DNA of 49,491 bases from Sphingobacteriia bacterium (GCA_021286705.1 JAJTBW010000003.1:1-49491), one strand, 5' to 3'. Shown: positions 4,840 to 36,537, counted from the stretch's first letter. Program-made: numbers and translations. The notes: a model not told the origin generated them from the letters alone.

Positions 4840-5247
4840 ATGAAAAACATTCTCTCCTCAATTCTGGTTATTTTCTGTTTATCACTTTCAGCAAACATGG
4901 TTTTAGCTGCAAGTCATAACGATAATGATGGAAAAGATTTATCAAAGGGAGTTTCTACACAAACAGCTACTCCGGCAGAACCAGCTCCAGCGGTTCAGAG
5001 TGCTATAAGTGGAAAAGTAACCGATATTCTAACCGGAGAAACACTTTCAGGTGCTGAAATTACAATTGAAGGAACGAACACTAAGGTCTACACTGACCTT
5101 GATGGTAACTTTAGCATTCCTCAGCTAAAACCAGGAAAGTATACCCTCATCTGCTCTTTAATCTCTTACAATAAGAGTTTAATAGAGAAACTTGAGGTTA
5201 GTTCTGATAAAACATCTTGTGAAATTGCTTTAGAATCTGCGCGTTAA
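4840..5247 (+). CDS. Small exported carboxypeptidase-regulatory-like domain protein (stand-alone SusC N-terminal-type domain)
   Basis: Signal peptide, P/A/T linker, ISGKVTD..TGETLSGA.I.IEGT....TDLDGNFSI..LKPGKYTL. Confidence 0.85.
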   Translation: MKNILSSILVIFCLSLSANMVLAASHNDNDGKDLSKGVSTQTATPAEPAPAVQSAISGKVTDILTGETLSGAEITIEGTNTKVYTDLDGNFSIPQLKPGKYTLICSLISYNKSLIEKLEVSSDKTSCEIALESAR

Positions 5248-6654: not shown

Positions 6655-8556
6655 GTGGAGAGCCAGATGAATTTAAAACACATAAACAGATCAATAATTC
6701 AGTTAGTTAAACTTAGTCTCTTTAGCTTCCTACTCTTAGCTACTAATTTGATCTATGGAACTAACCTCGCTTTTACAGGTCACCCAACTACAAAGCAGTT
6801 CATTGATACTAAGGAAAGCGGGGGTTATAGTTCGACCGAACATGATCGTTTGCTTAATGAGATGAGCATTATTAAGAGCGAAAATGAGAGACTACGGATT
6901 ACTAAACAGGTTCTAACGGCACTGGTAGGATTCACTATGCTCGTATTCTTCTTTTGGTTAGTCATGAGCAGAACTAAACTTCGAAGACAGATTCAGGAAG
7001 AGAAAGATAAGCTCAGTAGATTTAAGGATGATACGATTAGAAATCTAGATATATACCTGGGAAACCTCAGCCATGAATTGAGAACGCCGTTAAATGGAAT
7101 TACCGGAGGGACGGAGCTTTTAAAGTACACTAATCTAACTGATAAGCAAGAGGAGTTTATTAACCTTTTGGATGTCTCATCCTCAAATATGTTGGCTGCA
7201 ATCAGTGATTACGTCGAGATATCAGATCTTGAAAGGAATGGAGAGACAACGCCAGTCAATCTTCATCACCTAACAGGAGACATTATCGATATGATTAGTG
7301 ATAAGGCAACAGAGCAAAGGATTAAACTAAATCTCTATACAGACACAAAGATACCTCACACTCTTTATCTGAACCAACCAGCAATCCGAAAAGCAATTAC
7401 TGGTTTTCTGAGACTGGCAATTTATCGTCCGAATACTACTGAGATCTCGTTAAAATGCGAGTTGGTAAAGCAGACAGGAAATATATCATCCTTAAAGATC
7501 TCATTTATTGATAATGGAGTGCCCATCATTCCTCAGCGTTTTAAAGAGTTGCTCAATGAAGAGCTTCCAGAGGAGGTAAATCTGTTAGATCTTATTGATC
7601 AGAACAGTGAGCATAAAATCAAAACACTCGCAAAAGTAGTTAAAGGGATAGATGGGGCTTTAGGATTAGAGCCATCATCAGAAAGAGGGAATATCATTTG
7701 GTTTACCTTAGTAGCCAACAGCGAAGAACCTTCTAGTGAAGCAATGGGGATTCACATAATGAAACTACCCAATTTAAAGGGGCTAATAGTTGATGATAAT
7801 CCGAATTCAAGAGCCATCTTCAGGCAGTATATGCAATTTTATGAGATGCGACCAAAAGAGGTGGAGACAGTAAATCAAGCTTTTGAACTACTTAAGACCG
7901 AAGAGACTCACTATCCAATAGTACTACTAAACCTAAGATATCCAACTGCCACCTCCTTATCTGGAATTCTTGAGTTCAAAAAAGCAAATCCTGAATCCAA
8001 GACACGTTTCATCTTGGTCTCTTCAACAGCTATGCCCCTAACCTATCAAGAGTTTAAAGAGTACGGAATTGATGCCATTCTGAGTAAACCTGTAAAGATT
8101 CATGAGTTATATCACATTATCGAAAAGCTTGCGGAAAAAGCCCCTATTCGACCCACCATCAACACAGAGACATCTCAAAGTGAGAAACCCGTTGTCTTGT
8201 TAGTTGAAGATAACATCATTAATGAAAAAGTCGCAAAAGCAACGCTTGAAAGACTAGGATATACAGTCGATGTAGCCGAGAACGGAAAGGTAGCCTTGCA
8301 AAAATACATTGAACACAGATATGATTTAATCTTGATGGATATAGAGATGCCTGAGATGGATGGTATACAAACTACTATCAAAATTAGAGATTTTGAAGCC
8401 TATTCTCCAATAGCGAAACATCCTAGGATCATAGCAGTAACGGCCAATGTTAAACCGGGAGACCGTGAGTTATGCATAAAAGCCGGTATGGATGACTATA
8501 TTAGCAAACCATTTAAACATGAAGAATTAATAAAAGTGCTGACATCAAACAAATAA
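6655..8556 (+). CDS. Membrane hybrid histidine-kinase-like protein: intact HisKA, degenerate HATPase, pseudo-receiver plus canonical receiver
   Basis: Two hydrophobic segments; SHELRTPLNGI; N-box Asn and G2 box absent; REC1 LLNLRYP (Asp to Asn); REC2 DLILMDIEMPEMDG...SKPF. Confidence 0.85.
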   Translation: MESQMNLKHINRSIIQLVKLSLFSFLLLATNLIYGTNLAFTGHPTTKQFIDTKESGGYSSTEHDRLLNEMSIIKSENERLRITKQVLTALVGFTMLVFFFWLVMSRTKLRRQIQEEKDKLSRFKDDTIRNLDIYLGNLSHELRTPLNGITGGTELLKYTNLTDKQEEFINLLDVSSSNMLAAISDYVEISDLERNGETTPVNLHHLTGDIIDMISDKATEQRIKLNLYTDTKIPHTLYLNQPAIRKAITGFLRLAIYRPNTTEISLKCELVKQTGNISSLKISFIDNGVPIIPQRFKELLNEELPEEVNLLDLIDQNSEHKIKTLAKVVKGIDGALGLEPSSERGNIIWFTLVANSEEPSSEAMGIHIMKLPNLKGLIVDDNPNSRAIFRQYMQFYEMRPKEVETVNQAFELLKTEETHYPIVLLNLRYPTATSLSGILEFKKANPESKTRFILVSSTAMPLTYQEFKEYGIDAILSKPVKIHELYHIIEKLAEKAPIRPTINTETSQSEKPVVLLVEDNIINEKVAKATLERLGYTVDVAENGKVALQKYIEHRYDLILMDIEMPEMDGIQTTIKIRDFEAYSPIAKHPRIIAVTANVKPGDRELCIKAGMDDYISKPFKHEELIKVLTSNK

Positions 8557-8566
8557 CAGACTAACA

Positions 8567-9670
8567 ATGAATACAATTAAGAAGATCCTTGTTATTGAAG
8601 ACACTGAGGATGTAAGAAATAACATCAAAGAGATACTTGAGACAGAAGATTACGAGGTCTCTACTGCTGAAAATGGGAAGATAGGAGTTGATGTCGCCTT
8701 AGCTAATACACCTGATCTGATCATTTGTGATATAATGATGCCAGAATTAGACGGTTATGAGGTATTAGAAAGATTAAGAAAGGATATTCGTACTGCCACT
8801 ACCCCTTTCATTTTCCTCACTGCAAAGAACACCAGAGAAGACCATCGTAGGGGAATGGCTCTTGGAGCAGATGATTACATAGCAAAACCTTTTACAATCG
8901 ATGAGCTTATTAACGCAGTTGAGGCTCGCATTAACAGAGCACATGAATTTAAGCAAAAGAGTGAGGAAAAACTTAACGAACTGACACGAAATATGGGAAC
9001 ACCCATTACACGTGTTATTCAAGAACCACTTAAGGCAGTGATAGGTTTCTCGCAATTGGTCATGACAGAATATGCCAATATGGAGAAACCCGAGATAGCT
9101 GAATTCATGTCGCTAATCTTCAAAGCCGGGCTTAAACTCAATGGGATCGTTCATAAGACGCTTCTCTATTATCAGCTTGAGGCTGCTATTTTCAACCCAA
9201 CCACATCTGATCTATTAAAAAAACAAGGTGCTTCTGATAGCCATCCAGCCATTCAGGATGCTATAAATGAGTTAGCTCAACGATATGGTCGTCAGGCCGA
9301 TCTACAACTTCATCTAGAGGCTCATAATGCCGTAAAAATCCCATTTGATCTCCTTAAAACGTTGGTTAGTGAAGTAATAGAAAATGCAATGCTCTATTCA
9401 CCAAAACGAACCCCTATTAAGGTTATCTCTGGAAGCGACCAGGAAAAGACTGTTATTACCGTAGCCGACGAAGGACTAGGGATGTCTGATGAACAAATAT
9501 CAAAGACTGGTGCTTTCTCTACACTCTCAACAGATGGGCAAGAAGCTGAAGGTGTAGGACTAGGTCTTACAATTACAAGAAAAATTGTAGATCTTTTTGG
9601 AGGCTCTCTCTCTATAAGAAGTACGCCAGGGATAGGAACAACTGTTAGGATAAACATTCCAAATATTTAA
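8567..9670 (+). CDS. Receiver + His-less HisKA-like + intact HATPase protein
   Basis: REC DLIICDIMMPELDG; PITRVIQEPLKAVIGFS in place of xxxHELRTPLNGILGFS; ENAMLYS, DEGLGM, GVGLGL, GIGTTV. Confidence 0.85.
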   Translation: MNTIKKILVIEDTEDVRNNIKEILETEDYEVSTAENGKIGVDVALANTPDLIICDIMMPELDGYEVLERLRKDIRTATTPFIFLTAKNTREDHRRGMALGADDYIAKPFTIDELINAVEARINRAHEFKQKSEEKLNELTRNMGTPITRVIQEPLKAVIGFSQLVMTEYANMEKPEIAEFMSLIFKAGLKLNGIVHKTLLYYQLEAAIFNPTTSDLLKKQGASDSHPAIQDAINELAQRYGRQADLQLHLEAHNAVKIPFDLLKTLVSEVIENAMLYSPKRTPIKVISGSDQEKTVITVADEGLGMSDEQISKTGAFSTLSTDGQEAEGVGLGLTITRKIVDLFGGSLSIRSTPGIGTTVRINIPNI

Positions 9671-10998: not shown

Positions 10999-11364
10999 TT
11001 AAGCAATCATTTCATTTACCTTCTCCAGAAATTCACTTATAGAAAACGGCTTATGAAGCACCTGCTTATAGCCTATGACTTGTACCATCTTTAAGTAATC
11101 ATTTGACCCAATTCTTCCACCACCTGACATTACAAGAACTGGGAAAGTGTGACCAGAGTCTTTAAGACTAAAAAGCAGCTCGAAACCATCAGAATCGGGC
11201 ATGATAATATCAGTGACGAGCAAGTCGGGCTTAACAGTTGTAAGTAATTGCATTGCCTCCAGACCATCCTGAGCCTCATAAACAGAAAAACCTTCACGCT
11301 CTAAGACATCTCGTAATCCCTCTCGAACCATCTTTTCATCCTCAACCAGAATAATCGTTTTCAT
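10999..11364 (-). CDS. Single-domain response regulator (CheY-like)
   Basis: ILVEDE, PDLLVTDIIMPDSDG, VMSGGG, LHKPF; no output domain. Confidence 0.9.
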   Translation of the reverse strand: MKTIILVEDEKMVREGLRDVLEREGFSVYEAQDGLEAMQLLTTVKPDLLVTDIIMPDSDGFELLFSLKDSGHTFPVLVMSGGGRIGSNDYLKMVQVIGYKQVLHKPFSISEFLEKVNEMIA

Positions 11365-11657: not shown

Positions 11658-12845
11658 CTATTTAGGTCTTCTTTCGTAACTTCCATATTTAACAATAACG
11701 GTATCTTTTACCATCCATTCACCTCTCGCCATTGTACTGATCAGAGAAAGATCGTCAGGTTTAAGAAGAAGAAGATCAGCATCAGCCCCAGAGGTCAATC
11801 GCCCCTTACTATTAAGCTTTAGGATTTTTGCCGGATTAAGGGTAACAGGTAACAAGGCTAAATCTAATTTCATTCCTTCATAATGAACACAGTCTGCCAT
11901 CTCCTTTAAATTTGAGTGAGGAGTTGCAGTTACCATACTGGTCAACTCGCCTGTCACAGGGTCAAAGCCGGGAAGAGAACCGCCGGCATCACTGGTAAAA
12001 GTAACATGCTCAGCAGGTACGCCTGAATCGATGAGCAATTTATAGGCTTTACTGGGTTTAATCTCCTCATCCTGATAATATGGATAGCTGGAGGTTGTTA
12101 TATCTACAAATCCTTTTACGCCATAGGACTTAGCATCTTCGAAAATCCACTCATTACGATTACAGTGAGTGGGAAGGAATTGTCTGAACTGAAGCATACT
12201 CTCATTTACCGCCTTATAAATCGGAGCAAACGGTTCTTTGGCATCTCCCATATGAAGATTCACAATTCCTGCTTTTCCACCAAGCATACCTCCTACCCTA
12301 GCATGTGCCGCAAGTCTGATCAGCTCAGCTGTAGGCGGAACAGACGAACGATGATCAGAGATAGCCACTTCGCCAACCCCAATCACTTCTTGAATCATTG
12401 AAATATCCTTAGAAACATCGCCTAGAATGGTAGGAGTTGGATGTTGATATGAACCGGTATAAATCCAAACAGATAAGCCCTCAGCATTAAGACCTTTTGC
12501 TCGCATAAGTACTGACTCAACAGTTCTGGTAACCCCATCGGTTCCCAGACAACCAATAATCGTAGTAACACCAGCTGTGGTATAATCGCTTAATTGAAGT
12601 TCTGGAGTACGTGACGCTGGGCCTCCTTCCCCCCCAGCTCCGGCTATATGTACATGCGCATCAATCAGCCCAGGTACAACTATCATTCCCTCAGCATCAA
12701 TCACCTCGACATCTTCCAAATTGATATTTATATGCTCTGAGATCTGCAGGATTTTATCACCACCTATCAGGATGTCCTTTTTTCCAAGATAAGAGGGAGA
12801 ATAAACTTCACCCCCTTTAATAAGTTTCACTAGATTTTTATGCAT
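11658..12845 (-). CDS. iadA: Isoaspartyl dipeptidase / beta-aspartyl peptidase (amidohydrolase superfamily)
   Basis: DAHVHIAGAGGEGG, GCLGTDG, TGSY, GEVAISDHRSS, NLHMG, PTHCNR, TSDAGGSLP; start moved to ATG 12845 (MHKNL); no signal peptide. Confidence 0.93.
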   Translation of the reverse strand: MHKNLVKLIKGGEVYSPSYLGKKDILIGGDKILQISEHININLEDVEVIDAEGMIVVPGLIDAHVHIAGAGGEGGPASRTPELQLSDYTTAGVTTIIGCLGTDGVTRTVESVLMRAKGLNAEGLSVWIYTGSYQHPTPTILGDVSKDISMIQEVIGVGEVAISDHRSSVPPTAELIRLAAHARVGGMLGGKAGIVNLHMGDAKEPFAPIYKAVNESMLQFRQFLPTHCNRNEWIFEDAKSYGVKGFVDITTSSYPYYQDEEIKPSKAYKLLIDSGVPAEHVTFTSDAGGSLPGFDPVTGELTSMVTATPHSNLKEMADCVHYEGMKLDLALLPVTLNPAKILKLNSKGRLTSGADADLLLLKPDDLSLISTMARGEWMVKDTVIVKYGSYERRPK

Positions 12846-12930
12846 ATAGGATTTATTTTTTAACAACTCATAAACACTTTTAAAAATAGTGTATTTTAAC
12901 GATCTTATATAAAAACTTAAAATAAAAACA

Positions 12931-14925
12931 ATGTTCACTAAAGTTAAACTTAACGTTATCAGACCATATCGAATACTTCTTGGTTTGGTTCTAGTGTCAG
13001 TAATTCACATTAACTCTTATTCTCAGGGTAGATTTTTGATTGTTGGAGGGGGCAATGAAAAAGAGACTACCAATAGTTGGAGCACGCCTGCATACAAATG
13101 GGCTGCTGAGGGGAAAAGAGTTGCCATCATCTCGACATCAGGAAGTGGTTATCCAGACTACTTTAAGAATTGGTGCAATGCCAAAGATGCAAAAGACTTC
13201 ATTGTAGCCAATAGCACTACGGCGAATCAACCCGCCTTATATGACTCCTTAACAACCTACCAAGTAATCTTCTTTGCCGGTGGAGATCAATGGGACTATT
13301 ATTCTCAATACAAAAACACAAAACTAGAAGAGGCCGTAAACGCCGTGTACATTTCAGGCGGGACAATTGGTGGAACCTCAGCCGGAATGCACATTCTTTC
13401 AGAGACCCTCTTCACTGCCGAAAACGGTACCGTTTACCCTGATGAATGCATCATCGATCCAAAAAACAAATATGTTAAACTAGCCAATGATCTCTTCAAT
13501 TTTTTCCCCGATCTGATTTTTGATACCCATATGGCAGAAAGAGGGAGAATGCCTCGATTGATCTCATTTGTTGCTAACAAAGCCCTAACTGACAATACGA
13601 AAATCATAGGACTTGGTCTGGATGACATGACATGCATGACCATCGATGAGTTTTCAGTCGGGACAGTATACGGAACGGGGGTAGCCACAATCGTTAAAAG
13701 TGAGCCAAGCAATTTTACCCAAAATGATGGAAGGTTAATTTCCGATAACGTCAGGATCACCCAACTTCTTGAAGGATCTACCGTAAATATGAAAACAATG
13801 GAGATCCTTACCCAAAACATGTCATTAACAATCACCCCAAAAACCAAAGGAGAAAATAGCTTATTGACCATTGTTGCAGGAGGAGAGGGATCAAATGGTA
13901 ATAACAATACTTTATTAGACTTCTGGGCAAAATTGGCAGCACCTTCCCAAACTACTTTGATTATCACAAAGGAGGTCAATGCTTATGTTACAGATCTAAA
14001 GAATAAAGTAGAACAACTGACTGGAAAATCTGCTATAGTGGTAATAGCATCAACAACCAATGGAAGTTCAACAACAGTTTTATCACAAATACTCTCATGT
14101 GGAAGAGTAATTTTTACTGAGAATGAAGATAATATAGCATCAACCTTCCTTCAATCCGAGAATGGACAAACACTACTAAACCAGATTAAAAGTCAAAACT
14201 TGCCGGTTGCCTTCCTAGGTTCAGATGCCAGATTCATTGGAAAATCGGTCGTAACAAACCTAGAGACCGAATATGCATCTTATGATGGAAAAATGAATTT
14301 CCTGCCCGGAATCGGACTATTATCAAACACCGTAATAATTCCGGAGACCTTCAGCAATTCTGATTTTTATGAGAATACAATTACCGCTTTGCCCTACGCT
14401 ATGATTCTTGATTCACTGCAATATGGCATTTGGTTAACGGGTGATAATTACGTATGCTACTCGACTAACGGATCAAAAGCAACCTTACTAGGTGGAGGGA
14501 AAGCCCCAGTCCTTCTTTTAACTAACAATGGTGATATTATTGCAGATTTTAGTTCAAAAACAGCCAATGGAAGTACCAGCATTAAACCTAGGCAAGTCGC
14601 TGGTTTTTCAGAGATGACCTTTACCTCGTTTGATGATTCTAAAGAGATTACAGTTGGAAACAGTGTAGCCATTGAAAACATTGAAAAAGATCATAATCCA
14701 ATTTCTATTACAGTAATTGATAATGAAGTGACATTCTCAGAGATATCATTACCATTTAGCTATAGACTAATTTCAATAGATGGAAAACTCATTGACTCGG
14801 GAATAAGTTACATGCCTCATATATCGATTCCAAGAAATGCTTTAACTTCACCCCAAGTTATTTTGTTAAATGTCTCTTACGGAAAAAACACTCAGACCTT
14901 TAAACTCATTTTCCCGACAAAGTAA
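12931..14925 (+). CDS. Secreted cyanophycinase-family (peptidase S51) protein: active domain + degenerate duplicate + T9SS-like C-terminal domain
   Basis: Signal peptide ending SYS|Q; LIVGGG, FFAGGDQ, GGTSAG (Ser150), DTHMAERGRMPRL (His200), GLDD; second copy from ~aa311; C-terminal ISIDGKLI...LLNV....TQTFKLI. Confidence 0.85.
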   Translation: MFTKVKLNVIRPYRILLGLVLVSVIHINSYSQGRFLIVGGGNEKETTNSWSTPAYKWAAEGKRVAIISTSGSGYPDYFKNWCNAKDAKDFIVANSTTANQPALYDSLTTYQVIFFAGGDQWDYYSQYKNTKLEEAVNAVYISGGTIGGTSAGMHILSETLFTAENGTVYPDECIIDPKNKYVKLANDLFNFFPDLIFDTHMAERGRMPRLISFVANKALTDNTKIIGLGLDDMTCMTIDEFSVGTVYGTGVATIVKSEPSNFTQNDGRLISDNVRITQLLEGSTVNMKTMEILTQNMSLTITPKTKGENSLLTIVAGGEGSNGNNNTLLDFWAKLAAPSQTTLIITKEVNAYVTDLKNKVEQLTGKSAIVVIASTTNGSSTTVLSQILSCGRVIFTENEDNIASTFLQSENGQTLLNQIKSQNLPVAFLGSDARFIGKSVVTNLETEYASYDGKMNFLPGIGLLSNTVIIPETFSNSDFYENTITALPYAMILDSLQYGIWLTGDNYVCYSTNGSKATLLGGGKAPVLLLTNNGDIIADFSSKTANGSTSIKPRQVAGFSEMTFTSFDDSKEITVGNSVAIENIEKDHNPISITVIDNEVTFSEISLPFSYRLISIDGKLIDSGISYMPHISIPRNALTSPQVILLNVSYGKNTQTFKLIFPTK

Positions 14926-15030
14926 GAGACTATTCCTGAAAGACTGCCGCTCGATAGTCAAGTTTCGACACCTAAAATGATATCTGATAAAATCACCTTT
15001 ACTCAGTACACACCACACAAAATGCTTAGA

Positions 15031-16281
15031 ATGAAAAAGCTAACAATACTATTATTTATCATCACTTATGTCTCTTCATATAATCTAATTGCGCAAAATG
15101 GGCACCTGATGATCGTCGGAGGGGCATTAGAGGACACTAACCAAGCTATCTACAAGCGAATGCTGGAACTTGCAGGAGGACCAACCCAGGCAAAGATTGC
15201 TATCATACCAAGTGCCAGCGGATATGCTACTACAGGACCTCAGATATTTGCCAATAACTGCATTAAATTCGGAGCCTTACCTTGGAATTGTGAAATCATT
15301 CAAATTGCATGCGTTGATGATCCGGACACTAAAGAGATAGATGAATCTACATGGGCATCAAATGCCAATAATCCCGAAATAGTTCAAAAGATCAAGGAGA
15401 GTAACCTTGTTTGGTTTACCGGTGGTGATCAGATGAGGACAATGAAACTCTTGATTCCAAATGGAAAACCTACGCCTGCATACGAAGCAGTTGTAGATGT
15501 TCTTAACCGTGGCGGTGTAGTTGCCGGATCTAGTGCCGGAGCAGCTATACAAAGCATCGTAATGATAGGTGGAGGAACCTCTTTAGGAGCTATAATCAAT
15601 GGCGAAGCTAGTTCTATCGAGATGACAGAAGAACCCGATCATGAAGGCATCTACTTAACAAAAGGCTGTGGTTTCTTTCCATACGGCATTGTTGACCAGC
15701 ACTTCAGTCAGCGGGCTAGACTAGGCAGATTAACATTAGCAGCATGGCTAAACAGAGAAAAATGGAGTCAGGCAATAGGAATTGATGAAGACACAGCCCT
15801 AGAGGTAGATTTAAAGAATGGAACTGGAATGGTATGGGGAAGAAATCACATTCTTGTAATTGACTTAAAACAGAGTCAAGGAATAAAGAACGATCAAGGA
15901 TACTCTTTCAAAAATGTCTCACTATCAATCTTACAACAAGGAGATGAAATCGATCTTAAACAAGGACAAATTACTATAGCCAAAGATAAAACACTATTAA
16001 AAAAAGAGACAAAAGACAAGAGAACCAGCTTTATTCAAACAGGTGCCCTTGGTGGCGATGGCTATTCACTTATTGACATGGTTGGAGAAATTATAACACA
16101 TAGTGAAGAAGAAGAGACTTTAAACAATTTAACACTGATTAGTCAAGATACGGCTGTACAATTTAGTCTTAAGAATACAAAAGAGACTCTTTTATATCGT
16201 TCAACCAAACAAAAGAACCGTTTCTCGGTTACTCATCTATCATTTGACATCACACCACTAAAAATTAAAGTTCTTAAATAG
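15031..16281 (+). CDS. Exported cyanophycinase (CphE-like, peptidase S51)
   Basis: Signal peptide MKKLTILL...LIA|Q; LMIVGGA, IIPSAS, VWFTGGDQ, AGSSAGAAI, VDQHFSQRARLGRL, GIDEDTAL give a complete Ser-His-Glu triad. Confidence 0.92.
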   Translation: MKKLTILLFIITYVSSYNLIAQNGHLMIVGGALEDTNQAIYKRMLELAGGPTQAKIAIIPSASGYATTGPQIFANNCIKFGALPWNCEIIQIACVDDPDTKEIDESTWASNANNPEIVQKIKESNLVWFTGGDQMRTMKLLIPNGKPTPAYEAVVDVLNRGGVVAGSSAGAAIQSIVMIGGGTSLGAIINGEASSIEMTEEPDHEGIYLTKGCGFFPYGIVDQHFSQRARLGRLTLAAWLNREKWSQAIGIDEDTALEVDLKNGTGMVWGRNHILVIDLKQSQGIKNDQGYSFKNVSLSILQQGDEIDLKQGQITIAKDKTLLKKETKDKRTSFIQTGALGGDGYSLIDMVGEIITHSEEEETLNNLTLISQDTAVQFSLKNTKETLLYRSTKQKNRFSVTHLSFDITPLKIKVLK

Positions 16282-16340
16282 ACCATTGACATTGCAAGCT
16301 AACGCAACAGAATAAGATAACTATCACCAATTTAGCTTTT

Positions 16341-19247
16341 ATGAATTATAAATTATTAACACTAATTGCTGTTATCCTATTTCCGCTTATCAGCTGGGGA
16401 CAGGATATAACTGTGAATGGCACAGTTACTTCGGCAAAAGACCAAACCCCTATACCAGGGGTTACGATTCAATTAAAAGGTACGGTGCGTGGAACAACCA
16501 CCGATATTAACGGACTCTTCCAGCTAAAAGTACCGGGAAATGGCATTTTGGTCATTTCGATGGTTGGAATGGAAAAACAAGAAGTTTCGGTTAATAACCA
16601 AACTACTATTAAAGTACAGATGACAGATGAAGCGGTTGATCTTGGCGAGGTCGTTGTTGTTGGATACTCAACAACAAGCCGTAAGTTAGTCACTGGTTCT
16701 GTTGGAGTTGTAGGAAGTGAGCAGATTAAAAACACTCCCCTAAGAACTATTGACGGAGTTCTACAGAGTAAGACCTCAGGAGTTCAAATTAACCAGAATT
16801 CCGGAACACCAGGGTCAGCAATGTCAATCAGACTTAGAGGTGGAAGCTCAATTAATGCAAGTAATGCGCCTCTGGTTGTAATCGATGGAATTCCTGTAAT
16901 TACAGGCGATTTCAGTCAAGTAGGTTTCGAAGGACAAGGTATTAATGCCCTGAGTGATCTTAACCCCGGAGACATTGAATCATTTACTGTTTTGAAAGAT
17001 GCTTCAGCGACTGCTATTTATGGTTCGAGAGGATCAAATGGCGTTATTTTAATTACAACAAAGAAGGGGCAAATAAAGAAGACGGATGTTGACATCTCAA
17101 TGTCATACGGATTCCAGACCTTCCCATGGGAGAGAAGACCAAAGCTCCTAAATGCAGCCCAGTACAATGAAGTTATGGGCACTAATGTTCAGGGAATTGA
17201 TACCGATTGGTTGAAGGAGGTGTTACAAACAGCACCAACAATGAACACAGAATTATCAATTTCGGGAGGCGACCAGAAAACGAGATTCTACATGTCAGGT
17301 AACTATTATAATCAGGATGGTATCGTAAAGGGAACAGATTATGAACGTTTCAGTGGCAGATTAAATCTTGATCACACCATCAATAATCGTTTCACAGTTG
17401 GTGGAAATCTTGCTGTTACCTATTCAAAAAATAATCGTGTTGAAGGTGACCAATCCATAAATGGGCCACTACCCAATGCTATCGCTCTTCCTGCTATCTT
17501 CCCGGTGTATGATGCAAACGGCAACTACGATGAAACAGGGCCTTACGCCAATCCAGTAGCCATTGCAAATGAAACAGTGAATCAGGCTTTCACAAACAGG
17601 ACAAATGGTAACATCTACTTGGATGCAAAAATCATTGAAGGACTAAGTTTCAACACAAAGTTAGGTGCCGATGTATATACACTCAGAGAGCACACCTACG
17701 ACCCTGTACTTACCAGACAAGGTAAGAAATACAACGGACTAGGAATCGAAGGAAATTCAACAGTGACCAATATTGTTAGCAATAATGTACTACAATATAT
17801 TACACAGATTAATGAAAAGCATAACATTGACGCATTAGCGGGTTATAGTTTTGAAAAGTACGCTCGTCGCTCAAGCTACATAGAGGCTATCGATTTCCCC
17901 AATGAAGATTTCCAATATATCACATCAGCTGGTACTATCAGAGCTGCCTCAACCAGTGCTACTGATAGAGGTATGAATTCCTGGTTTGGACAATTCAAAT
18001 ACAATTATGATTACAGATATCTTATTCAGGTAACAGCCAGATATGATGGTTCTTCTAAATTCGGAGAGAACAACCAATATGGTTTCTTCCCCGCCGTATC
18101 ATTAGGTTGGCGCTTATCACAAGAGAAATGGATGAAACAATATTCAAAACTGAATGATCTAAAACTGAGAGCAAGCTGGGGGGTAACTGGTAATGATGGT
18201 ATTTCCGATTTTGCCTCATTAGGGCTCTATAGCGGAGGCGCTAACTACAATCAAGGATCTGGTATTTATCCATCTCAACTTCCTAACCCTGACTTAAAAT
18301 GGGAGACCACTAATCAATTAGGAATTGGCGTTGATCTTGCTGCATTTAACAATCGACTCACTGTTACAGTTGATGCTTACCTCAACAAGACCAAAGACCT
18401 ATTACTTGATAGACCTTTACCTCCATCATCTGGGTTTACTACCATCACAAGTAACATTGGGGAATTGGAAAACAAAGGGTTAGAAATAACTATTAACACC
18501 GTCAACCTCAACGGCGAGTTCAAATGGGAGAGTAATTTTAACTTCACAATGAATCGTAATAAGGTTACAAAACTTTACAACGGTGAGCCTATACCAGAGG
18601 TAGGTCGTGGTTCAAACTCAGTTCGTGAGGGTGAAGCAATTGGCGTGTTCTGGGGCTTTAATTGGCTTGGAGTAGACCCAACTACCGGTGAATATGTCTA
18701 TGAAGATGTTAATAAAGACGGACAACTAACCGATGCTGACAAGATGGTTATTGGTGACCCCAATCCCGATTTCTATGGTGGCTTCTCAAACAACTTTAGT
18801 TATAAAGACTTTGAGTTGAATGTACTTCTGAGTTACAACGTTGGTAACGATATTTTCAATGGAATGAGGATTTATGCTGAAGCTATTTCAGGGTCAGATA
18901 ACCAGTTAACAACTGTTCTTGACCGCTGGCAGAAACCAGGTGATATAACGAATATGGCAAAAGTCGGTGATAGCTATGCATCCTCTAGACTTCTTGAGGA
19001 TGGATCATTCTTGAGGATAAAAAATGTTACACTGGCATATAAGTTCCCTAAATCAATCGTATCTAAGTTGCACCTCAGAAATGCCAGAGCTTTCTTTACA
19101 ATACAAAACCTGTTCACCTTTACCAACTATTCGGGCATGGATCCGGAAGTTAACTATGCAGGAGATGATAACCTTCGTAGAGGAACAGATTTCTACACCT
19201 ATCCCCAATCCAGAACATTTATGGCTGGTTTAACATTAGGTTTTTAA
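16341..19247 (+). CDS. susC: SusC/RagA family TonB-dependent transporter
   Basis: N-terminal CarboxypepD_reg-like domain, EVVVVGY, DIESFTVLKDASATAIYGSRGSNGVILITTKKG, PDLKWETT, C-terminal Phe. Confidence 0.97.
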   Translation: MNYKLLTLIAVILFPLISWGQDITVNGTVTSAKDQTPIPGVTIQLKGTVRGTTTDINGLFQLKVPGNGILVISMVGMEKQEVSVNNQTTIKVQMTDEAVDLGEVVVVGYSTTSRKLVTGSVGVVGSEQIKNTPLRTIDGVLQSKTSGVQINQNSGTPGSAMSIRLRGGSSINASNAPLVVIDGIPVITGDFSQVGFEGQGINALSDLNPGDIESFTVLKDASATAIYGSRGSNGVILITTKKGQIKKTDVDISMSYGFQTFPWERRPKLLNAAQYNEVMGTNVQGIDTDWLKEVLQTAPTMNTELSISGGDQKTRFYMSGNYYNQDGIVKGTDYERFSGRLNLDHTINNRFTVGGNLAVTYSKNNRVEGDQSINGPLPNAIALPAIFPVYDANGNYDETGPYANPVAIANETVNQAFTNRTNGNIYLDAKIIEGLSFNTKLGADVYTLREHTYDPVLTRQGKKYNGLGIEGNSTVTNIVSNNVLQYITQINEKHNIDALAGYSFEKYARRSSYIEAIDFPNEDFQYITSAGTIRAASTSATDRGMNSWFGQFKYNYDYRYLIQVTARYDGSSKFGENNQYGFFPAVSLGWRLSQEKWMKQYSKLNDLKLRASWGVTGNDGISDFASLGLYSGGANYNQGSGIYPSQLPNPDLKWETTNQLGIGVDLAAFNNRLTVTVDAYLNKTKDLLLDRPLPPSSGFTTITSNIGELENKGLEITINTVNLNGEFKWESNFNFTMNRNKVTKLYNGEPIPEVGRGSNSVREGEAIGVFWGFNWLGVDPTTGEYVYEDVNKDGQLTDADKMVIGDPNPDFYGGFSNNFSYKDFELNVLLSYNVGNDIFNGMRIYAEAISGSDNQLTTVLDRWQKPGDITNMAKVGDSYASSRLLEDGSFLRIKNVTLAYKFPKSIVSKLHLRNARAFFTIQNLFTFTNYSGMDPEVNYAGDDNLRRGTDFYTYPQSRTFMAGLTLGF

Positions 19248-19264
19248 CTTTAAATTGAAAGACA

Positions 19265-20593
19265 ATGAAAAGAAGTATATATCTTATCCTAGCTCTGATC
19301 ATTAGCTCTGCTTGCAGTAAAATACTTGATGTTGAACCGACAGCGAGCATAGATGTAAATGAGGCTATCAAAAACAAAAGAGGCGTCGAGAGAGCCTTAA
19401 ATGGGACTTATGATGCCCTACAACAGGCAGGTTCGTACGGTAGAAATATGGCTTTGATGGCTGATTTAGCCGCCGATAACCTTTCTTGGACTGGTACAAC
19501 TTACGATTATGGTCAAATAGCTGACAAGAAAATCCTATCTAATAATGTGGTCATTGATGGAATGTGGACTAGCTCTTATGATGCTATTAACCGTGCAAAC
19601 AATATCATTGAACGCCTTCCGTCGGTAACTGATATGACCGATTCTGAAAAGGCATCCGTTGAGGGTGAATGTAAGTTTATCAGAGCTTTAATGCACTTTG
19701 ATCTCGTAAGATATTGGGGGCAAATCCCTCTAAAGCTACAAGCCACGACGAATTTGAATAATATCAATACACCTGCCAGCAGTAAGATAGATGTCTTGAA
19801 CGCTGTAATTAACGACTTGAAATATGCTGTCCAGACAATGACTCCGGCCGCCAAGCAGGGTTATGCCTCTGGTGATGCTGCTAAAGCATTACTCACGAGA
19901 GCCTATCTGTACCGTTTTTATCTTACAAATGATGTAACTGATCTTAATACATTGATTCCACTTGCTAATGAGATTGTTACTGCCTACCCTTTGACTGGTT
20001 CGTATGCATCTCTCTTTGGCAATAATTCTGCTAATACTGAATCTCTCTTCGAGGTAGTATTTAATGAACAGGATAAAAACGTTATTGCTCAATATCTATA
20101 TCCAAGATCTCTAACAGGTAGATATGAGTTTGCACCAACTACAGACCTTATTAATTCTTTTGAGGCAGATGATCAAAGAGGTCAGATGATTCTGGTTGAT
20201 GGATCTAATTTCCCGTATGCTAATAAATACCAGGATGTAAGTGCCGGTACTGATAGAGTCTATGTCATCAGATCAGCTGAAGTACAACTTATTCTTGCTG
20301 AAGCAAAATACTTATTAAATGAACCAGCAGGCGATGTACTCAGTGCCCTTAATGCAATTAGATTAAGAGCGGGACTCTCATCAATTCTCTCTGCAACGCA
20401 TGAGCAATTGCTATCACTTATTCTTTTGGAATACAGACATGAATTTGCTTTTGAAGGCCATCGTTGGCACGATCTTATCAGAACGAACATGGCCGTTTCG
20501 GTTCTTGGCATTGAGCAGTTCAGAACACTTTGGCCAATCCCAATAAGTGAGACTCAATCGAATAATGCAATCAAACAAAACGAAGGTTATTAA
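19265..20593 (+). CDS. susD: SusD/RagB family outer-membrane lipoprotein
   Basis: Lipobox SSAC; Y..INRAN.II, GECKFIRA..HFDLVRYWG.IP, R.AEV.L..AEA, EFAFEGHRWHDL.R, QNEGY. Confidence 0.96.
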   Translation: MKRSIYLILALIISSACSKILDVEPTASIDVNEAIKNKRGVERALNGTYDALQQAGSYGRNMALMADLAADNLSWTGTTYDYGQIADKKILSNNVVIDGMWTSSYDAINRANNIIERLPSVTDMTDSEKASVEGECKFIRALMHFDLVRYWGQIPLKLQATTNLNNINTPASSKIDVLNAVINDLKYAVQTMTPAAKQGYASGDAAKALLTRAYLYRFYLTNDVTDLNTLIPLANEIVTAYPLTGSYASLFGNNSANTESLFEVVFNEQDKNVIAQYLYPRSLTGRYEFAPTTDLINSFEADDQRGQMILVDGSNFPYANKYQDVSAGTDRVYVIRSAEVQLILAEAKYLLNEPAGDVLSALNAIRLRAGLSSILSATHEQLLSLILLEYRHEFAFEGHRWHDLIRTNMAVSVLGIEQFRTLWPIPISETQSNNAIKQNEGY

Positions 20594-20702
20594 TCAGAAA
20601 CAGAAAAATCAGTAAAATTGAGTTGATTGATAGCTTCAAATATTGCGAAACTATAGAATAGCTAAACAGCTCAAATACTACTGGTGAAAAATATAAGATC
20701 AT

Positions 20703-21908
20703 ATGAAGAATATCTTTAAAACCCTTCTCTTCTCTTTGCTAGCCACCTTTGCGTTGGTGTCATGCAATAAAGATGATGAGATTAAAAAGCCGGCTGCTTC
20801 AACTCAAGCCGACTTCTCTTATACTGTGTCAAATGATGGGTACTTCCCATGCACCGTTACTTTCACAAACAAGTCATTAAACGCAAATTCCTACTCATGG
20901 AATTTCGGAAATGGCACTACCTCAACAGAGGTTAATCCTGCAGTTACATTTGATACCCCTGGTGTTTATACTATTACACTCACTTGCACCGGAGATAACA
21001 GTGTCTATTATAATAACCTAACAAAGACCATTCAGGTAATTGTAAAAGATCCTAATGCGGGAAAGACTCACGTAATGTATTACACTACTAGAAGTTCAAC
21101 AGGTGGTGATGTCTGGATGGTTATTCTTGATGGAAATAATCCGGTACCTCAGAGGTTTAACGCGACCCAACTGGAACGTCCATATGGAATTGCTGTTGAC
21201 ACCGCAACCAAAAAAGTCTTCGTAGCCGATTATTATAACGAGAGAATTGTTAGATATGACGCTGATGGTAAAAACGAGACGGTAATTCTTGATGCCGCAG
21301 TTCCTGGTCAGGAAATAGTGGGGTCACCTCAGGGAATTATCGTAATTAAAGACAAGCTATACTTCGGTAGCCCTAATGGTATCTACCGTTGCAATCTTGA
21401 TGGTACTTCTCCTGAGAAGTTCATCAATCTCGAAAGCACCGGGGCGTCCTATCCGCTCGATCTCTATTATGTAGCATCAACTAAGACTTTCTATTTTGCC
21501 AATGATAAAACAGACTACGAAGGAGGCCTATTTAAGGTAAACTTTGATGGTACTGGACTGACTAAGATCATTCCTGATATTGACAATACTGCCATTGAAG
21601 TTGATACTGTAAACAATAAGATCTATGCTGTCACCTATAGTCAGGATGGAACTCTGTTTAGTGAAAATGGAGTTTACATGATGAATTTAGATGGCTCAGG
21701 GGTTACGAAGATCGGCGACTTTGGGGCAAAGGCTACATGGGGAATTGCCCTTGACCAAAAAGAGAAGAACCTATACTGGAGTTTCAAAACAAGCAATGAA
21801 AACCCCGACGGTAAAATTATCAGGAGCAATCCCGATGGTTCCGGACAAACAGACTGGCTTACAGGTGCTAGTCCGCATGCCATGATTATCACTGATATCA
21901 AGCTATAA
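20703..21908 (+). CDS. Surface lipoprotein with PKD domain and LDL-receptor-class-B-like beta-propeller
   Basis: Lipobox LVSC then NKDDE; PKD motif VTFTNKS.NA.SYSWNFGNG..ST..NP..TF..PGVYTITL; repeats GIAVD..KKVF, GIALD...NLYWS, NLDGS/NPDGS. Confidence 0.85.
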   Translation: MKNIFKTLLFSLLATFALVSCNKDDEIKKPAASTQADFSYTVSNDGYFPCTVTFTNKSLNANSYSWNFGNGTTSTEVNPAVTFDTPGVYTITLTCTGDNSVYYNNLTKTIQVIVKDPNAGKTHVMYYTTRSSTGGDVWMVILDGNNPVPQRFNATQLERPYGIAVDTATKKVFVADYYNERIVRYDADGKNETVILDAAVPGQEIVGSPQGIIVIKDKLYFGSPNGIYRCNLDGTSPEKFINLESTGASYPLDLYYVASTKTFYFANDKTDYEGGLFKVNFDGTGLTKIIPDIDNTAIEVDTVNNKIYAVTYSQDGTLFSENGVYMMNLDGSGVTKIGDFGAKATWGIALDQKEKNLYWSFKTSNENPDGKIIRSNPDGSGQTDWLTGASPHAMIITDIKL

Positions 21909-21927
21909 ACCTACTAATTACTGCATA

Positions 21928-21972
21928 AGAAAAGAGGATAATCCGTTAACCGGGTATCCTCTTTTCTCTTTT
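21928..21972 (+). terminator. Terminator closing the S51-susCD operon
   Basis: agaaaagaggata...tatcctcttttct plus T-rich tail. Confidence 0.85.
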
Positions 21973-22081
21973 AGCCAATTGAAATTCATAGGAAGATCTG
22001 CCTCATGATTGACATCGAATTTGGTAGTTTGGAAATCTTAAGCATTTCACGAATCAACAATTTAAACTCTCCTTATAATTG

Positions 22082-22235
22082 AAATCCCGAATCTTGAATC
22101 TTGAATCCCGAATCTTGAATCTTGAATCTCGAATCTTGATCCTCGAATCTTGATCCTCGAATCTTGAATCTCGAATCTTGAATCTTGAATCTCGAATCCT
22201 GAATCTCGAATCTTGAATCTCGAATTTCAAATCTT
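22082..22235. repeat. Heptamer tandem repeat, 22 units (GAATCTT/GAATCTC/GAATCCC/GATCCTC)
   Basis: Units counted directly in sequence. Confidence 0.95.
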
Positions 22236-22336: not shown

Positions 22337-23152
22337 CTATTTTATTAGTACCTTCTTGACGATAGTTTGCTTACCAGAGGTTACCTTAACCATATAAAGG
22401 CCTGAAACTAAAGATGAGACATTAACTTGTAACGGAGCAGTTGCGTTATCAAATGAGAGTACCTTTTCACCTGTTAAACTAAAAATATCGACGATAGCAT
22501 TATGAAAATCGCCTTTAACAACCATATTATTCACAACAGGATTAGGCATTATATCAACCCTTGAAAGCACAGGTGACTGTATGCCAATTCCAGACTGACC
22601 AGTTAGTTGAATACTATCGAGTAAAAGTTTATACATATCACTGCAGTCATAATGAACCCAAGCAAGGTAAATCGTTTTGCCGGCATAAACTGATAAGTCA
22701 ATATTTCGCGGATCCCAAATACCATTAGAGGCCCAGATGGGTAAAGTCTCTTCATAGACATTATCAGTAAATGAGGCTACCTCATTGTTTGTGCTAGAAA
22801 CCATCAATTTATAATGCTCTTGATAATAATTATCATCAGCACCTGATATTACATAGTGAAGAACCAAACCACCGGTCGCTGAAGTCAGATTAATTGCAGG
22901 AGAGATGAGCCAGTTGTCAGGTGTTAAAGGACTTCCGTCCCATGAACGACTTGTCATATACTGCTCCATTACAGGGCCTCCATCATACCAATCCCAATAC
23001 CAGTTCTGGGTATCACCATCCTGATCAACAAACTTCCAGGTGTTAACCACAGTAGCTGAGTCAGTAAATTGCTCTTCAAATAGCACAGTAGTCTGACTGT
23101 GTAAACTTCCTAAGAAGAACAAAAACAAAATACTAAGTAAAAAATTCTTCAT
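22337..23152 (-). CDS. Cleaved-adhesin (choice-of-anchor J) domain protein with T9SS type A C-terminal domain
   Basis: W..VDQDGD..NW, LTPDNWLISP, YYQEHY, DLS.YAGKTIYLAWVH, LLLDSI; CTD MPNPV...IFSLTGEKV...LVSGLYMVKV....VKKVLIK. Confidence 0.9.
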   Translation of the reverse strand: MKNFLLSILFLFFLGSLHSQTTVLFEEQFTDSATVVNTWKFVDQDGDTQNWYWDWYDGGPVMEQYMTSRSWDGSPLTPDNWLISPAINLTSATGGLVLHYVISGADDNYYQEHYKLMVSSTNNEVASFTDNVYEETLPIWASNGIWDPRNIDLSVYAGKTIYLAWVHYDCSDMYKLLLDSIQLTGQSGIGIQSPVLSRVDIMPNPVVNNMVVKGDFHNAIVDIFSLTGEKVLSFDNATAPLQVNVSSLVSGLYMVKVTSGKQTIVKKVLIK

Positions 23153-34581: not shown

Positions 34582-36537
34582 CTAGTTAGTTTTAACACTC
34601 TCCAACTTAAAAGAGGCTTGTCGGAGAATCGTTTTCCCAATAGGAATCAAATTAACCTCTTCAATTTCCTGATTGTCATGATTTCTCAACTTGGCTATAA
34701 TCATCCCATCTTTAAACATAGCGTTATGATTAGCATAGTAATCATATTGTCTTAGATCTTTCGCCTTATATCCAAAGTCTTTGAAATCGTGGGTGTAAAC
34801 CCTACCGATAGATTCAATAGCCTCTATAGGAAAAGCGTACAGAAGAGCTCCATATCTAAAGTACTTCTCCTGATTGCTATCTTCAACAACTCTGACTTCC
34901 GTTTTAAACTCCAACTCAATGACACTATCTGATACGGAATTGTAATTAAAAATGAGAAATCCCTCTTCTGTTTTAAAAGGTTTATTTGATTCAACAGATG
35001 TAGCCCACTGGGGTCTCCTGATTTTAAGTTTAAAGCTATACTCAGATTCAGATTTAATTTTAAATACAACCCGATTACTGTATGGATACTCTGTACTCTC
35101 CTCAATCCAGACAGGATGACCGTTAATTAAGGAAGTAACATTGCAAGGTGCAATAACAGGGGCAACAAAAGTATCCTCACCCTCCTTAAGCCAGCAGGTT
35201 TGTATAAAATAAGGGGTAATTCTACCAGCATTAGGCACACAACATACGGCAACATCCTGATGAACAGAAGAGTATTTATATCTAGTCTGTGTGTGTTTCC
35301 CCTCTTTCAAACCGTTTTTACTTCCTTCCATTTCAAAGGAGTTATCAGTTTTAAGATAGGCTATACACGAATGATCAGGATTACGACTGCCTTGGGCTGC
35401 ATTAAAAAATATATTCTCAATATCGTTGGCTACCATTAGATCACCACTTTTCTGAAGCAATACAGAATAACTATCCATCAATTCATGAATAGAACAATAT
35501 TCATAACCCGTCATTGTAGCATCAGCTTTTCTACCGGCAATCCATTCATCCCCTATTGGACCACCCGATTGGGTAGTGCATGATCGGATTCGTGAAAGAT
35601 AGATATCCAGGGCCTGTATGAGGTCATGACGACCTGTGGCATAAGCGGAGACAATCAATGGTCGAAGATGTTCATAAGTATGAACACCGTGCGATTGAAG
35701 CTTAAAATCCTTATCTAGAATATTTAGGAGTTGGGCATCTTTCTCTGATGAGAAATTCCTTGAGAAGTTATCATATAGAAAAGCGGCATAGACTGGATAA
35801 CGTCGATCTCCTGTAATCTGATATAGTCTATCAAGGATATCCGTAAATGTAAGTCCGTGAGCTACACCCCCTGCGAAATCTGTCCCAGCAAAAAAAGGGT
35901 TTGAACTATTGAGTGGATAATTGGTCATTACATTCTCAACCGCCATAATAATTGAGATTAACAAAGCCGAATCATTGCAATAGTCGTAATAGGCAAGTAA
36001 TCCTCTAAGAAGAGTACTTTTAGCCCACAGTTCACCATTTTCAGAGACGAATTTATAACGAAGCTCATCATCGTAGATACCAAGATAACCATCCTCATCT
36101 TGCGTCTTTAAAACCCCATTTATATAACTTTTTATCTTTTCAAGAGCCTGATGATCATCAAGTAAAATAGCATTTCTGATAAAACCATCCCACCAGTTTG
36201 ACTGCGTTTCAGAGTTCCACCACTTGTACTGCTCATCGCCTGCAGCATCACCCGCTTTAAGATTTCCCAGATCCTTTGCCTTACTATGCTTCTTTAACCT
36301 ACCAGACCCATAAATTGAGTCATTCATCAACGTTGGTACTAACCGATCAAGATTTCCTACAAAACCTTCCATATCACACTTCATTTGGTTTCTAAGCCAT
36401 CCAGACGGCTTGATGGATCCAACGGGAAGCCGTGAATACTTTTCGTGCAATGGCATCATTTGTCCTTGAGTCATATCCGCAATTATTACCAATAAAAAGA
36501 AAACTGAATACTTAATAAAACTAGCCATATCATTCAT
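34582..36537 (-). CDS. Exported GH127/GH146-like glycoside hydrolase (beta-L-arabinofuranosidase family)
   Basis: Signal peptide; GSIKPSGWL, QDEDGYLG, GDEW, YEYCS (Glu-x-Cys), CCVPN, TEYPY, KIRRPQW. Confidence 0.85.
   Translation of the reverse strand: MNDMASFIKYSVFFLLVIIADMTQGQMMPLHEKYSRLPVGSIKPSGWLRNQMKCDMEGFVGNLDRLVPTLMNDSIYGSGRLKKHSKAKDLGNLKAGDAAGDEQYKWWNSETQSNWWDGFIRNAILLDDHQALEKIKSYINGVLKTQDEDGYLGIYDDELRYKFVSENGELWAKSTLLRGLLAYYDYCNDSALLISIIMAVENVMTNYPLNSSNPFFAGTDFAGGVAHGLTFTDILDRLYQITGDRRYPVYAAFLYDNFSRNFSSEKDAQLLNILDKDFKLQSHGVHTYEHLRPLIVSAYATGRHDLIQALDIYLSRIRSCTTQSGGPIGDEWIAGRKADATMTGYEYCSIHELMDSYSVLLQKSGDLMVANDIENIFFNAAQGSRNPDHSCIAYLKTDNSFEMEGSKNGLKEGKHTQTRYKYSSVHQDVAVCCVPNAGRITPYFIQTCWLKEGEDTFVAPVIAPCNVTSLINGHPVWIEESTEYPYSNRVVFKIKSESEYSFKLKIRRPQWATSVESNKPFKTEEGFLIFNYNSVSDSVIELEFKTEVRVVEDSNQEKYFRYGALLYAFPIEAIESIGRVYTHDFKDFGYKAKDLRQYDYYANHNAMFKDGMIIAKLRNHDNQEIEEVNLIPIGKTILRQASFKLESVKTN

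Follow-up and report, generated by a model that had tools for sequence, protein, structure and literature searches.

A SusC/SusD-linked candidate cyanophycin utilization locus in an uncultured Bacteroidales bacterium

Gene organization of the locus

The window analyzed here is the whole of a 49,491 nt stretch of DNA from a Sphingobacteriia bacterium (GCA_021286705.1 JAJTBW010000003.1:1-49491), and within it we examined a six-gene locus that is a candidate for the utilization of cyanophycin, a non-ribosomal polypeptide in which microbes store nitrogen. The six genes, from iadA to a lipoprotein gene, had been located in an earlier inspection of the DNA (the sequence-only reading) and were confirmed at the same coordinates using the open reading frame (ORF) list and family scans. 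On the minus strand, iadA (11658..12845) encodes a 395 aa isoaspartyl (beta-aspartyl) dipeptidase and is divergent from a run of five plus-strand genes. This run begins with two genes for S51-family enzymes, referred to here as S51-1 (12931..14925; 664 aa, ATG at 12931) and S51-2 (14977..16281; 434 aa, or 417 aa if the start is the MKK motif at 15031). It continues with susC (16341..19247), encoding a 968 aa SusC/RagA-family TonB-dependent transporter, susD (19265..20593), encoding a 442 aa SusD/RagB-family outer-membrane lipoprotein, and a gene (20703..21908) for a lipoprotein with a PKD domain and a YWTD propeller. Gaps inside the run are 17–109 bp, and the S51-1-to-lipoprotein run is closed by an intrinsic terminator (21921..21975, plus strand) made of a hairpin and a U-rich tail. 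The hairpin, found within 21912-21975, has a folding energy (dG) of −23.1 kcal/mol (z −5.46), which none of 200 shuffled sequences equalled.

The mechanical ORF for iadA extends to a GTG at 12938; the start is likely the ATG at 12845, since the family match starts a few residues past it, and this leaves a gap of exactly 85 bp (12846..12930) to the ATG of S51-1. The divergent iadA, the 85 bp gap, the co-oriented run and the strong terminator described in the sequence-only reading were all borne out. The AT-rich 85 bp region is presumed to be the promoter region of both transcription units. A scan for sigma-70-type promoters gave 28 matches against 31.7 in shuffled sequences, using a tool that holds no Bacteroidota promoters, and a TAnnTTCG-like box was seen by eye 5′ of S51-1 in many related loci. 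The same region contains a palindrome, ACACT-N9-AGTGT, at 12860-12885, also seen by eye in the related locus L011; it might serve as an operator.

A Pfam-type family scan found no carbohydrate-active enzyme (CAZyme) domain in any of the six genes, as the sequence-only reading had claimed, which places the locus outside the strict definition of a polysaccharide utilization locus (PUL), where at least one CAZyme is linked to susCD. No hybrid two-component system (HTCS), SusR or extracytoplasmic function (ECF)-sigma/anti-sigma regulator was seen adjoining the locus. The signal peptides of both S51 proteins and SusC, and the lipoboxes of SusD and of the protein encoded last, were identified visually in the translations.

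The two S51-family enzymes and IadA

Both S51 proteins match the cyanophycinase model TIGR02069, and neither matches a PepE model at E ≤ 0.01, in keeping with the cyanophycinase assignment of the sequence-only reading. S51-2 scores 137.1 bits (138.2 in the genome scan), above the equivalog cut-off of 126.6. Its motifs GSSAGA, DQHF, R-x-R-x-x-R and GIDEDT align with the cyanophycinases 7uqv and 3en0 in the PDB, and its pocket and catalytic positions are all as in 3en0, the CphB of Synechocystis. S51-1 scores 96 bits (91 in the genome scan) and does not reach this cut-off; it matches the Pfam S51 family at 32.4 bits (cut-off 23.9). It retains the Ser, the His, GGDQ and R-x-R-x-x-R in alignment with solved cyanophycinases. 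Invariant in 16 aligned sequences (S51-1 and 15 homologues) are S150, D198-T199-H200, R204/R206/R209 and D231-D232. We take the aligned S51 positions to have the roles familiar from the CphB structure literature, namely a Ser nucleophile with its His and acid partners and a pocket rich in Arg.

S51-1 consists of a signal peptide, a cyanophycinase-fold domain (residues ~33-295), a second alpha/beta domain (~313-577) and a C-terminal beta-sandwich (~584-664), as seen in an AF2 model with a mean pLDDT of 82.1 whose folds were compared by VIA. Residues 33-295 gave Z scores of 25.2 (7uqv) and 23.8 (7uqw, 3en0) against 12.9-17 for peptidase E entries. In the second domain the position matching the nucleophile has no conserved Ser, and no internal duplication was detected when the two domains were compared with hhalign (probability 0.1%). 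Matches of language-model features (Atlas) to Peptidase_S51 at 0.83-0.84 lie below the trust level for such matches and serve as a lead only. It is possible that this domain is a degenerate S51 domain, and we hypothesize that it could be a dead S51 copy serving in binding.

The Pfam and NCBIfam models gave nothing useful at E ≤ 10 for the middle domain (300-580) or the tail (575-664) of S51-1, and the C-terminal domain (CTD) models of the type IX secretion system (T9SS), PF18962 and TIGR04183, did not match the tail at E ≤ 10. Residues 584-664 of the model do resemble T9SS CTDs (PorZ, Z 10.5; mirolase, Z 7.8; RemA, Z 7.6). PF18962 is present in most of the 120 S51-1 homologues listed, and likewise in most of those with 40-50% identity, and the C-terminal segments align. 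The genome also encodes the T9SS proteins SprA (2,345 bits) and GldM (310 bits). Export of S51-1 by the T9SS is supported by the CTD-like fold, the PF18962 domains of the homologues and the presence of SprA and GldM. The T9SS-like tail proposed in the sequence-only reading is supported by the fold match and the homologues, by which the locus has two S51 enzymes, one of them with a putative Por/T9SS secretion domain; the tail itself gave no HMM match at E ≤ 10. S51-2 has a signal peptide, and neither a lipobox (by eye) nor a CTD (HMM scans) was found in it, so we predict that it is periplasmic. Its C-terminal ~100 aa match no family in Pfam or NCBIfam at E ≤ 10.

The iadA product scores 439.2 bits against TIGR01975, above the equivalog cut-off of 331, and is the only match in the genome above that cut-off. 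No signal peptide was seen by eye, and IadA is for this reason predicted to be cytoplasmic. Two cyanophycinase-like genes lie beside a divergent iadA at a distance of 85 bp, and such strict linkage to iadA is an argument for beta-aspartyl dipeptides as the products of the S51 enzymes.

SusC, SusD and the propeller lipoprotein

The transporter gene product matches TIGR04056 at 891 bits and the TIGR04057 signature at 69 bits. Pfam domains found in it are CarbopepD_reg, Plug and the barrel, and the scan did not report an STN signalling domain. Its best PDB sequence matches are 8aa4, titled 'SusC homolog' (506 bits), followed by RagA 6sli (364 bits). The adjoining gene, starting 17 bp past susC, encodes a protein with PF07980 and PF14322 and a lipobox (..SSAC, by eye), giving a SusC protein paired with a SusD-family lipoprotein. 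Other SusC genes in the same genome are at most 33% identical to the SusC of the locus.

Family scans of the last protein gave PKD matches and propeller-type repeats, and a lipobox (..LVSC-NKDDE) was seen by eye. Its AF2 model (pLDDT 90.9) has an N-terminal PKD domain, resembling 7kv5 ('PKD domain protein'), and after it a beta-propeller of the YWTD type (LDL-receptor class B) with six blades. The top Foldseek matches are the propellers of LRP4, LRP6, LRP2, nidogen and LDLR (E ~1e-13, TM to target up to 0.8); the fold among these structural matches is a ligand-binding rather than a catalytic one. By analogy, this lipoprotein may bind substrate at the surface as a counterpart of SusE/F-type glycan-binding proteins.

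Conservation in relatives and neighbouring genes

In a scan of one genome per species, 116 relatives of S51-1 were confirmed by tblastn and the best 80 were examined; these 80 loci leave out that of Salinivirga, discussed below. A gene was counted as present when tblastn with one of the six window proteins gave a match with E ≤ 1e-10 and a query coverage of 40% or more. By title, the metagenome-assembled genomes (MAGs) of the relatives are Bacteroidales, Lentimicrobiaceae, Prolixibacteraceae/Draconibacterium, Saprospiraceae and a few Flavobacteriales. Two of the loci, L020 and L021, come from MAG records labelled Draconibacterium orientale, and isolates of that species may have the locus too. 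The full order iadA (minus strand), S51-1, S51-2, susC, susD and propeller gene is kept in 43/80 loci, so the six-gene arrangement is far beyond chance. IadA was present in 64 of the 80 loci, S51-2 in 65, SusC in 63, SusD in 57 and the propeller protein in 53. Median identities to the window proteins were 59% for IadA, 42% for S51-1, 37% for S51-2, 60% for SusC, 44.5% for SusD and 55% for the propeller protein. The sequence-only reading had counted it as a refutation if the gene association were conserved in no other genome. This is clearly not the case, since iadA, the S51 genes, susCD and the lipoprotein gene stay together across several Bacteroidota families, with all six genes kept in the 43 related loci just mentioned.

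A SusC with at least 40% identity is found in 62/80 loci. It is absent despite at least 8 kb on both sides in four (L048, L071, L081 and L082), and in the remaining 14 the locus ends too soon to tell. Since identity among these SusC proteins is about 60% compared with at most 33% for the paralogues in the genome, the evidence suggests that the SusC of the locus belongs to a dedicated orthologue group. Gene order is rearranged with the genes still together in the Saprospiraceae loci L016 and L072, and also in L073, L075 and L086. Among 401 Bacteroidota genomes sampled evenly, an S51-1-like match at E ≤ 1e-30 was present in 32, and the match extends over 560 or more of the model's 656 positions in only 8 of them, one being the genome of the window; the full S51-1 architecture is patchy and uncommon across the phylum.

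These data bear directly on a rival explanation, in which nothing but chance or common descent has put the genes side by side and they have no joint function; it is already disfavoured and in our view very improbable. It would fit the promoter scan, which did no better than shuffles, and the fact that co-transcription of the run is inferred. Against this, the six-gene order persists in several families at median protein identities of just 37-60%, four of the rearranged loci (L016, L072, L073 and L075) still hold the genes together, and the window itself has gaps of 17-109 bp with a single strong terminator at the end of the run.

Neighbouring genes were counted by clustering the flanking ORFs of 81 loci, the window included. 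An M28 peptidase adjoins iadA in 38/81, and a 366 aa T9SS-CTD protein lies mostly directly after the propeller gene in 31/81. Farther upstream are an M14 carboxypeptidase (25/81) and an enolase-superfamily (MR_MLE) protein (24/81). A DcuC-family carrier gene is found in 17/81 loci, mostly downstream, and an M64 peptidase beside the locus in 7/81. In 12/81, the window among them, a gene for a protein with Cleaved_Adhesin and T9SS-CTD domains is directly downstream; this protein differs from the 366 aa one, whose 31 loci are additional to the 12. In the window this convergent gene (22337..23152, minus strand; Cleaved_Adhesin of the choice-of-anchor J type) encodes a product matching PF07675 at 89 bits and PF18962 (T9SS type A CTD) at 44.9 bits, and it is possible that it is an accessory surface protein of the locus. 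Many relatives, e.g. L013, L016, L017, L029 and L030, have an extended cluster with M14 and MR_MLE genes, an M28 gene by iadA and a DcuC gene downstream. The locus of the window has no M28, M14, MR_MLE or DcuC neighbours. The M14 and MR_MLE pair (24-25 relatives), which is reminiscent of the MpaA/YcjG murein-peptide module of E. coli, was considered as part of the system and set aside, as it is absent beside the locus in the window.

Genome content and proposed pathway

The assembly comprises 322 contigs totalling 4.16 Mb, with a completeness of 95%. No cphA was found in this 95%-complete genome, the best match scoring 28.5 bits against a cut-off of 850, a level comparable to that of the matches in 14/14 control genomes; the absence of a cyanophycin synthetase, claimed for the locus in the sequence-only reading, extends to the genome as assembled. 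The only two S51 cyanophycinase-like genes in the genome are those of this locus. An arcA-like gene gave a full-length match of 266.5 bits in the genome scan, below the 489-bit cut-off. The single DcuC-family gene (G000:C166:6063-7664) is on another contig and is 53% identical to the locus-linked ones, and the DcuC/ArcD-type carrier it encodes is a candidate for an inner-membrane step.

Taken together, we consider it likely that this is a cyanophycin utilization locus, in which a SusC/SusD system has become adapted to a non-ribosomal polypeptide, and that it lets its host scavenge the polymer released by other cells. That host, an uncultured Bacteroidales bacterium, would be unable to produce cyanophycin itself. 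Gene content, families, folds, synteny, the absence of cphA and the presence of a T9SS are what this reading is built on, and activity, binding, localization and regulation are predicted from them. S51-1 would be exported by the T9SS to the cell surface, where S51-1, the propeller lipoprotein and SusD, perhaps with the T9SS adhesin-domain protein, would bind the poorly soluble polymer. A cut at the surface would give soluble (beta-Asp-Arg)n fragments, which SusC, powered by TonB, would import. In the periplasm S51-2, a canonical cyanophycinase by sequence, would degrade the fragments to beta-Asp-Arg dipeptides. These would be taken in by an inner-membrane carrier encoded outside the locus, for which the DcuC/ArcD-type transporter of the genome is the candidate because its orthologue is locus-linked in 17 relatives, and cytoplasmic IadA would release Asp and Arg. 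A compartmentalized scavenging pathway of this kind was the central proposal of the sequence-only reading; it stands as the best-supported functional reading of these genes, except that the inner-membrane step was missing from that model as it is from the locus.

Several observations weigh against a role in cyanophycin use, and most of them would also fit a general peptide or necromass locus resembling RagAB. In such a locus SusCD would bring in peptides, either ordinary ones or ones with isoaspartyl damage, on which the S51 proteins would act as exopeptidases directed at Asp, and the role of IadA would be to remove beta-Asp dipeptides resistant to other peptidases. Both S51 proteins have their best PDB match, by sequence (72.5 and 53.7 bits) and also by fold, in 7uqv, titled 'Pseudobacteroides cellulosolvens pseudo-CphB', whose authors reportedly saw no cyanophycinase activity for a structurally very similar putative cyanophycinase. 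In our alignment pseudo-CphB likewise keeps the canonical motifs, and therefore motif conservation cannot prove cyanophycinase activity. The equivalog score of S51-1 falls short of the cyanophycinase cut-off, and in this protein a Thr replaces Gln173 of CphB (the position before the His) and an Asp replaces the Glu of the triad, both invariant in its homologues. The M28, M14 and M64 peptidases beside the loci of relatives fit broader peptide scavenging too, and the second-best PDB match of SusC, RagA, is a peptide importer. This genome has no regulator or inner-membrane transporter linked to the locus. Sharon & Schmeing 2023 (PMC10206079) describe cyanophycinases as exo-enzymes that release dipeptides, which makes an oligomer importer such as SusCD less obviously needed, and the IadA enzymes of cyanophycin clusters as promiscuous for isoaspartyl dipeptides.

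Even so, we find the general peptide locus unlikely. S51-2 is above the equivalog cut-off with PepE models unmatched, the fold of S51-1 is closer to cyanophycinase than to PepE, and the extra peptidases are absent from the locus in the window. In addition, the tight and long-lived coupling of two S51 genes, iadA and one SusC group points to one defined substrate.

The kind of locus described here was already proposed from genomes in 2017 and is apparently still uncharacterized. A literature search, in which subscription journals were largely uncovered, found no experimental characterization of a SusC/SusD or other TonB-dependent cyanophycin transporter, and it found no biochemical or genetic evidence for any homologous locus, a further point against our interpretation. 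The sequence-only reading had known of no characterized TonB-dependent cyanophycin uptake, and this agrees with the search as far as experiments go; the concept itself is not new, being cited as a proposal of 2017. Confirmation of the cyanophycin reading by biochemistry would define a SusC/SusD system for a non-ribosomal polypeptide and extend the utilisome concept beyond glycans and the peptides of RagAB. The gain is limited by the earlier genome-based proposal of the same concept. What this study adds to it is the breadth of conservation, the dedicated SusC group, the three-part S51-1, the YWTD-propeller lipoprotein, the recurrent T9SS and DcuC partners and the warning given by pseudo-CphB. 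The conserved six-gene core provides straightforward recombinant targets.

Habitat and possible sources of substrate

Near-identical DNA was found in metagenomes from wastewater, bioreactor sludge, microbial fuel cells, biofloc/biofilm and marine sediment, with at least half of the sampled words in 14 runs; 11 studies account for the holders, one of the runs being possibly the source of the assembly. This matches the sludge-type habitats that the sequence-only reading had named. By record title, lake, sulfidic-cave and marine MAGs have related loci as well. RNA libraries of three studies contain contigs that map to susC, susD and the genes of the propeller and adhesin proteins, and one contig of 2,688 nt bridges 19169-21856; DNA may be present in such libraries, and this contig is not proof of a single transcript. 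The contigs cover S51-1 and S51-2 little or not at all, which says nothing about their expression.

Activated sludge is described as a place where cphA is ubiquitous (PMC10687191), and a source of substrate in wastewater and sludge habitats is therefore plausible. The substrate could, on the other hand, be a cyanophycin-like polymer other than the classical Asp-Arg granules, e.g. the product of the paired cphA/cphA' of sludge Betaproteobacteria. The clusters of these bacteria have two cphA copies and an ABC transporter without cphB (PMC10687191), a fitness study proposes export of the polymer (bioRxiv 10.1101/072470), and near-identical DNA comes mainly from wastewater, sludge and reactor samples. 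The departures of S51-1 from CphB at two pocket/triad positions and its extra domain would also agree with a different polymer. This idea is pure conjecture, however, and S51-2 is canonical at the aligned pocket positions, while homologous loci are not confined to sludge, as the lake, cave and marine titles show. We give it only a slim chance.

A more elaborate form of the cyanophycin reading, which we hold to be improbable as a whole, is that the locus encodes a surface capture machine for an insoluble non-ribosomal polypeptide. The dead S51 domain as a binding module, the YWTD propeller and the T9SS adhesin would together replace the SusE/F binders, and the substrate in wastewater may be polymer exported by cphA/cphA' Betaproteobacteria, not granules from lysed cyanobacteria. 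If cyanophycin use by the locus is confirmed, it would identify recyclers of cyanophycin nitrogen in wastewater and sediment communities, where recovery of the polymer is being explored as a route for nitrogen capture.

Features flanking the locus

Upstream of iadA are genes for a hybrid histidine kinase/response regulator and a response regulator-HATPase protein (6655-9670) and for an orphan receiver-only response regulator (10999-11364). Only the closest relative, L011, has these signalling genes in its flanks too, which makes a conserved role in regulating the locus improbable. On the other side, a 7-nt tandem repeat (GAATCTT, ~20 copies, 22083-22235; periods of 14 and 21 were scored too) sits in the convergent intergenic region between the terminator of the locus and that of the adhesin gene, a terminator-like hairpin at 22316-22288 (minus strand). 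Contigs from other samples carry small insertions inside the repeat, and its length therefore probably varies among strains.

Two short ORFs were seen elsewhere in the window. One of 135 aa (4840-5247, plus strand) is made up of a CarboxypepD_reg-like domain and nothing else; SusC-type transporters usually carry this module at the N-terminus, and the ORF may be a fragment or encode a stand-alone protein. The other, of 134 aa (36597-37001, minus strand), has only the N-terminal domain of a GH92 glycosidase, possibly as a gene remnant, and adjoins a GH127-like gene (34582-36537, minus strand) and an AraC-type regulator.

Comparison with known systems

The closest described system is that of Salinivirga cyanobacteriivorans L21-Spi-D4. 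PMC10206079 cites Ben Hania et al. 2017 (Environ Microbiol; PMID 27943642) for a "cyanophycin utilization locus" in an isolate of the Bacteroidetes; it names Flammeovirga pacifica along with strain L21-Spi-D4 as carriers of scavenging clusters and gives the transporter of the 2017 locus as just 'a transporter'. The two S51 enzymes of Salinivirga differ from each other, one being plain and one having a Por secretion domain (PMC6243061). The window is alike in having two S51 enzymes of which one has a putative secretion domain of the Por (T9SS) type. Salinivirga is an isolate from a hypersaline mat, whereas the window is from an uncultured Bacteroidales MAG of wastewater-type samples, and the two loci are likened by their descriptions. 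The transport complex of Salinivirga is reportedly homologous to PULs; a linked SusC/SusD-like transporter would then match the susC and susD of the window.

The window enzymes share with CphB (Synechocystis; 3en0, 7uqw) and CphE the S51 fold, a nucleophilic Ser, the His and the motif of the Arg-rich pocket. CphE of Pseudomonas anguilliseptica is extracellular (PMC10206079), and both S51 enzymes of the window likewise carry signal peptides. Compared with these enzymes, S51-1 is a 664 aa, three-domain putative T9SS cargo with a Thr for Gln173 and an Asp for the Glu, and S51-2 has a C-terminal extension of ~100 aa without a known family. Pseudo-CphB (7uqv), the best PDB match by sequence, is statistically no different from CphB as a fold match (Z 25.2 vs 23.8), but it is a single-domain chain of 275 residues from a Firmicute, and its title marks it as not a true CphB.

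Cyanophycin has been proposed as a TonB-dependent substrate before, from gene context in Citromicrobium sp. JLT1363 (Tang et al. 2012, PMC3400609). The transporter in that case is a plain alphaproteobacterial TonB-dependent transporter without a SusD partner, and that assignment is a prediction too.

The wider layout is that of the PULs and utilisomes of Bacteroides (Sus, levan, dextran), in which a surface enzyme, binding lipoproteins and SusCD are followed by a periplasmic finishing enzyme. Unlike these, the locus in the window has no CAZyme and no adjoining HTCS, SusR or ECF-sigma/anti-sigma regulator, its enzymes are serine peptidases, and its predicted surface enzyme is a T9SS cargo, not a lipoprotein. 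RagAB of Porphyromonas gingivalis (6sli) differs in handling ribosomal oligopeptides from gingipains and in having no linkage to S51 or IadA genes, and the SusC of the window is closer to 8aa4 than to RagA. As a SusC/SusD-type pair that imports peptides and not glycans, RagAB nevertheless provides the functional precedent for the system proposed here.

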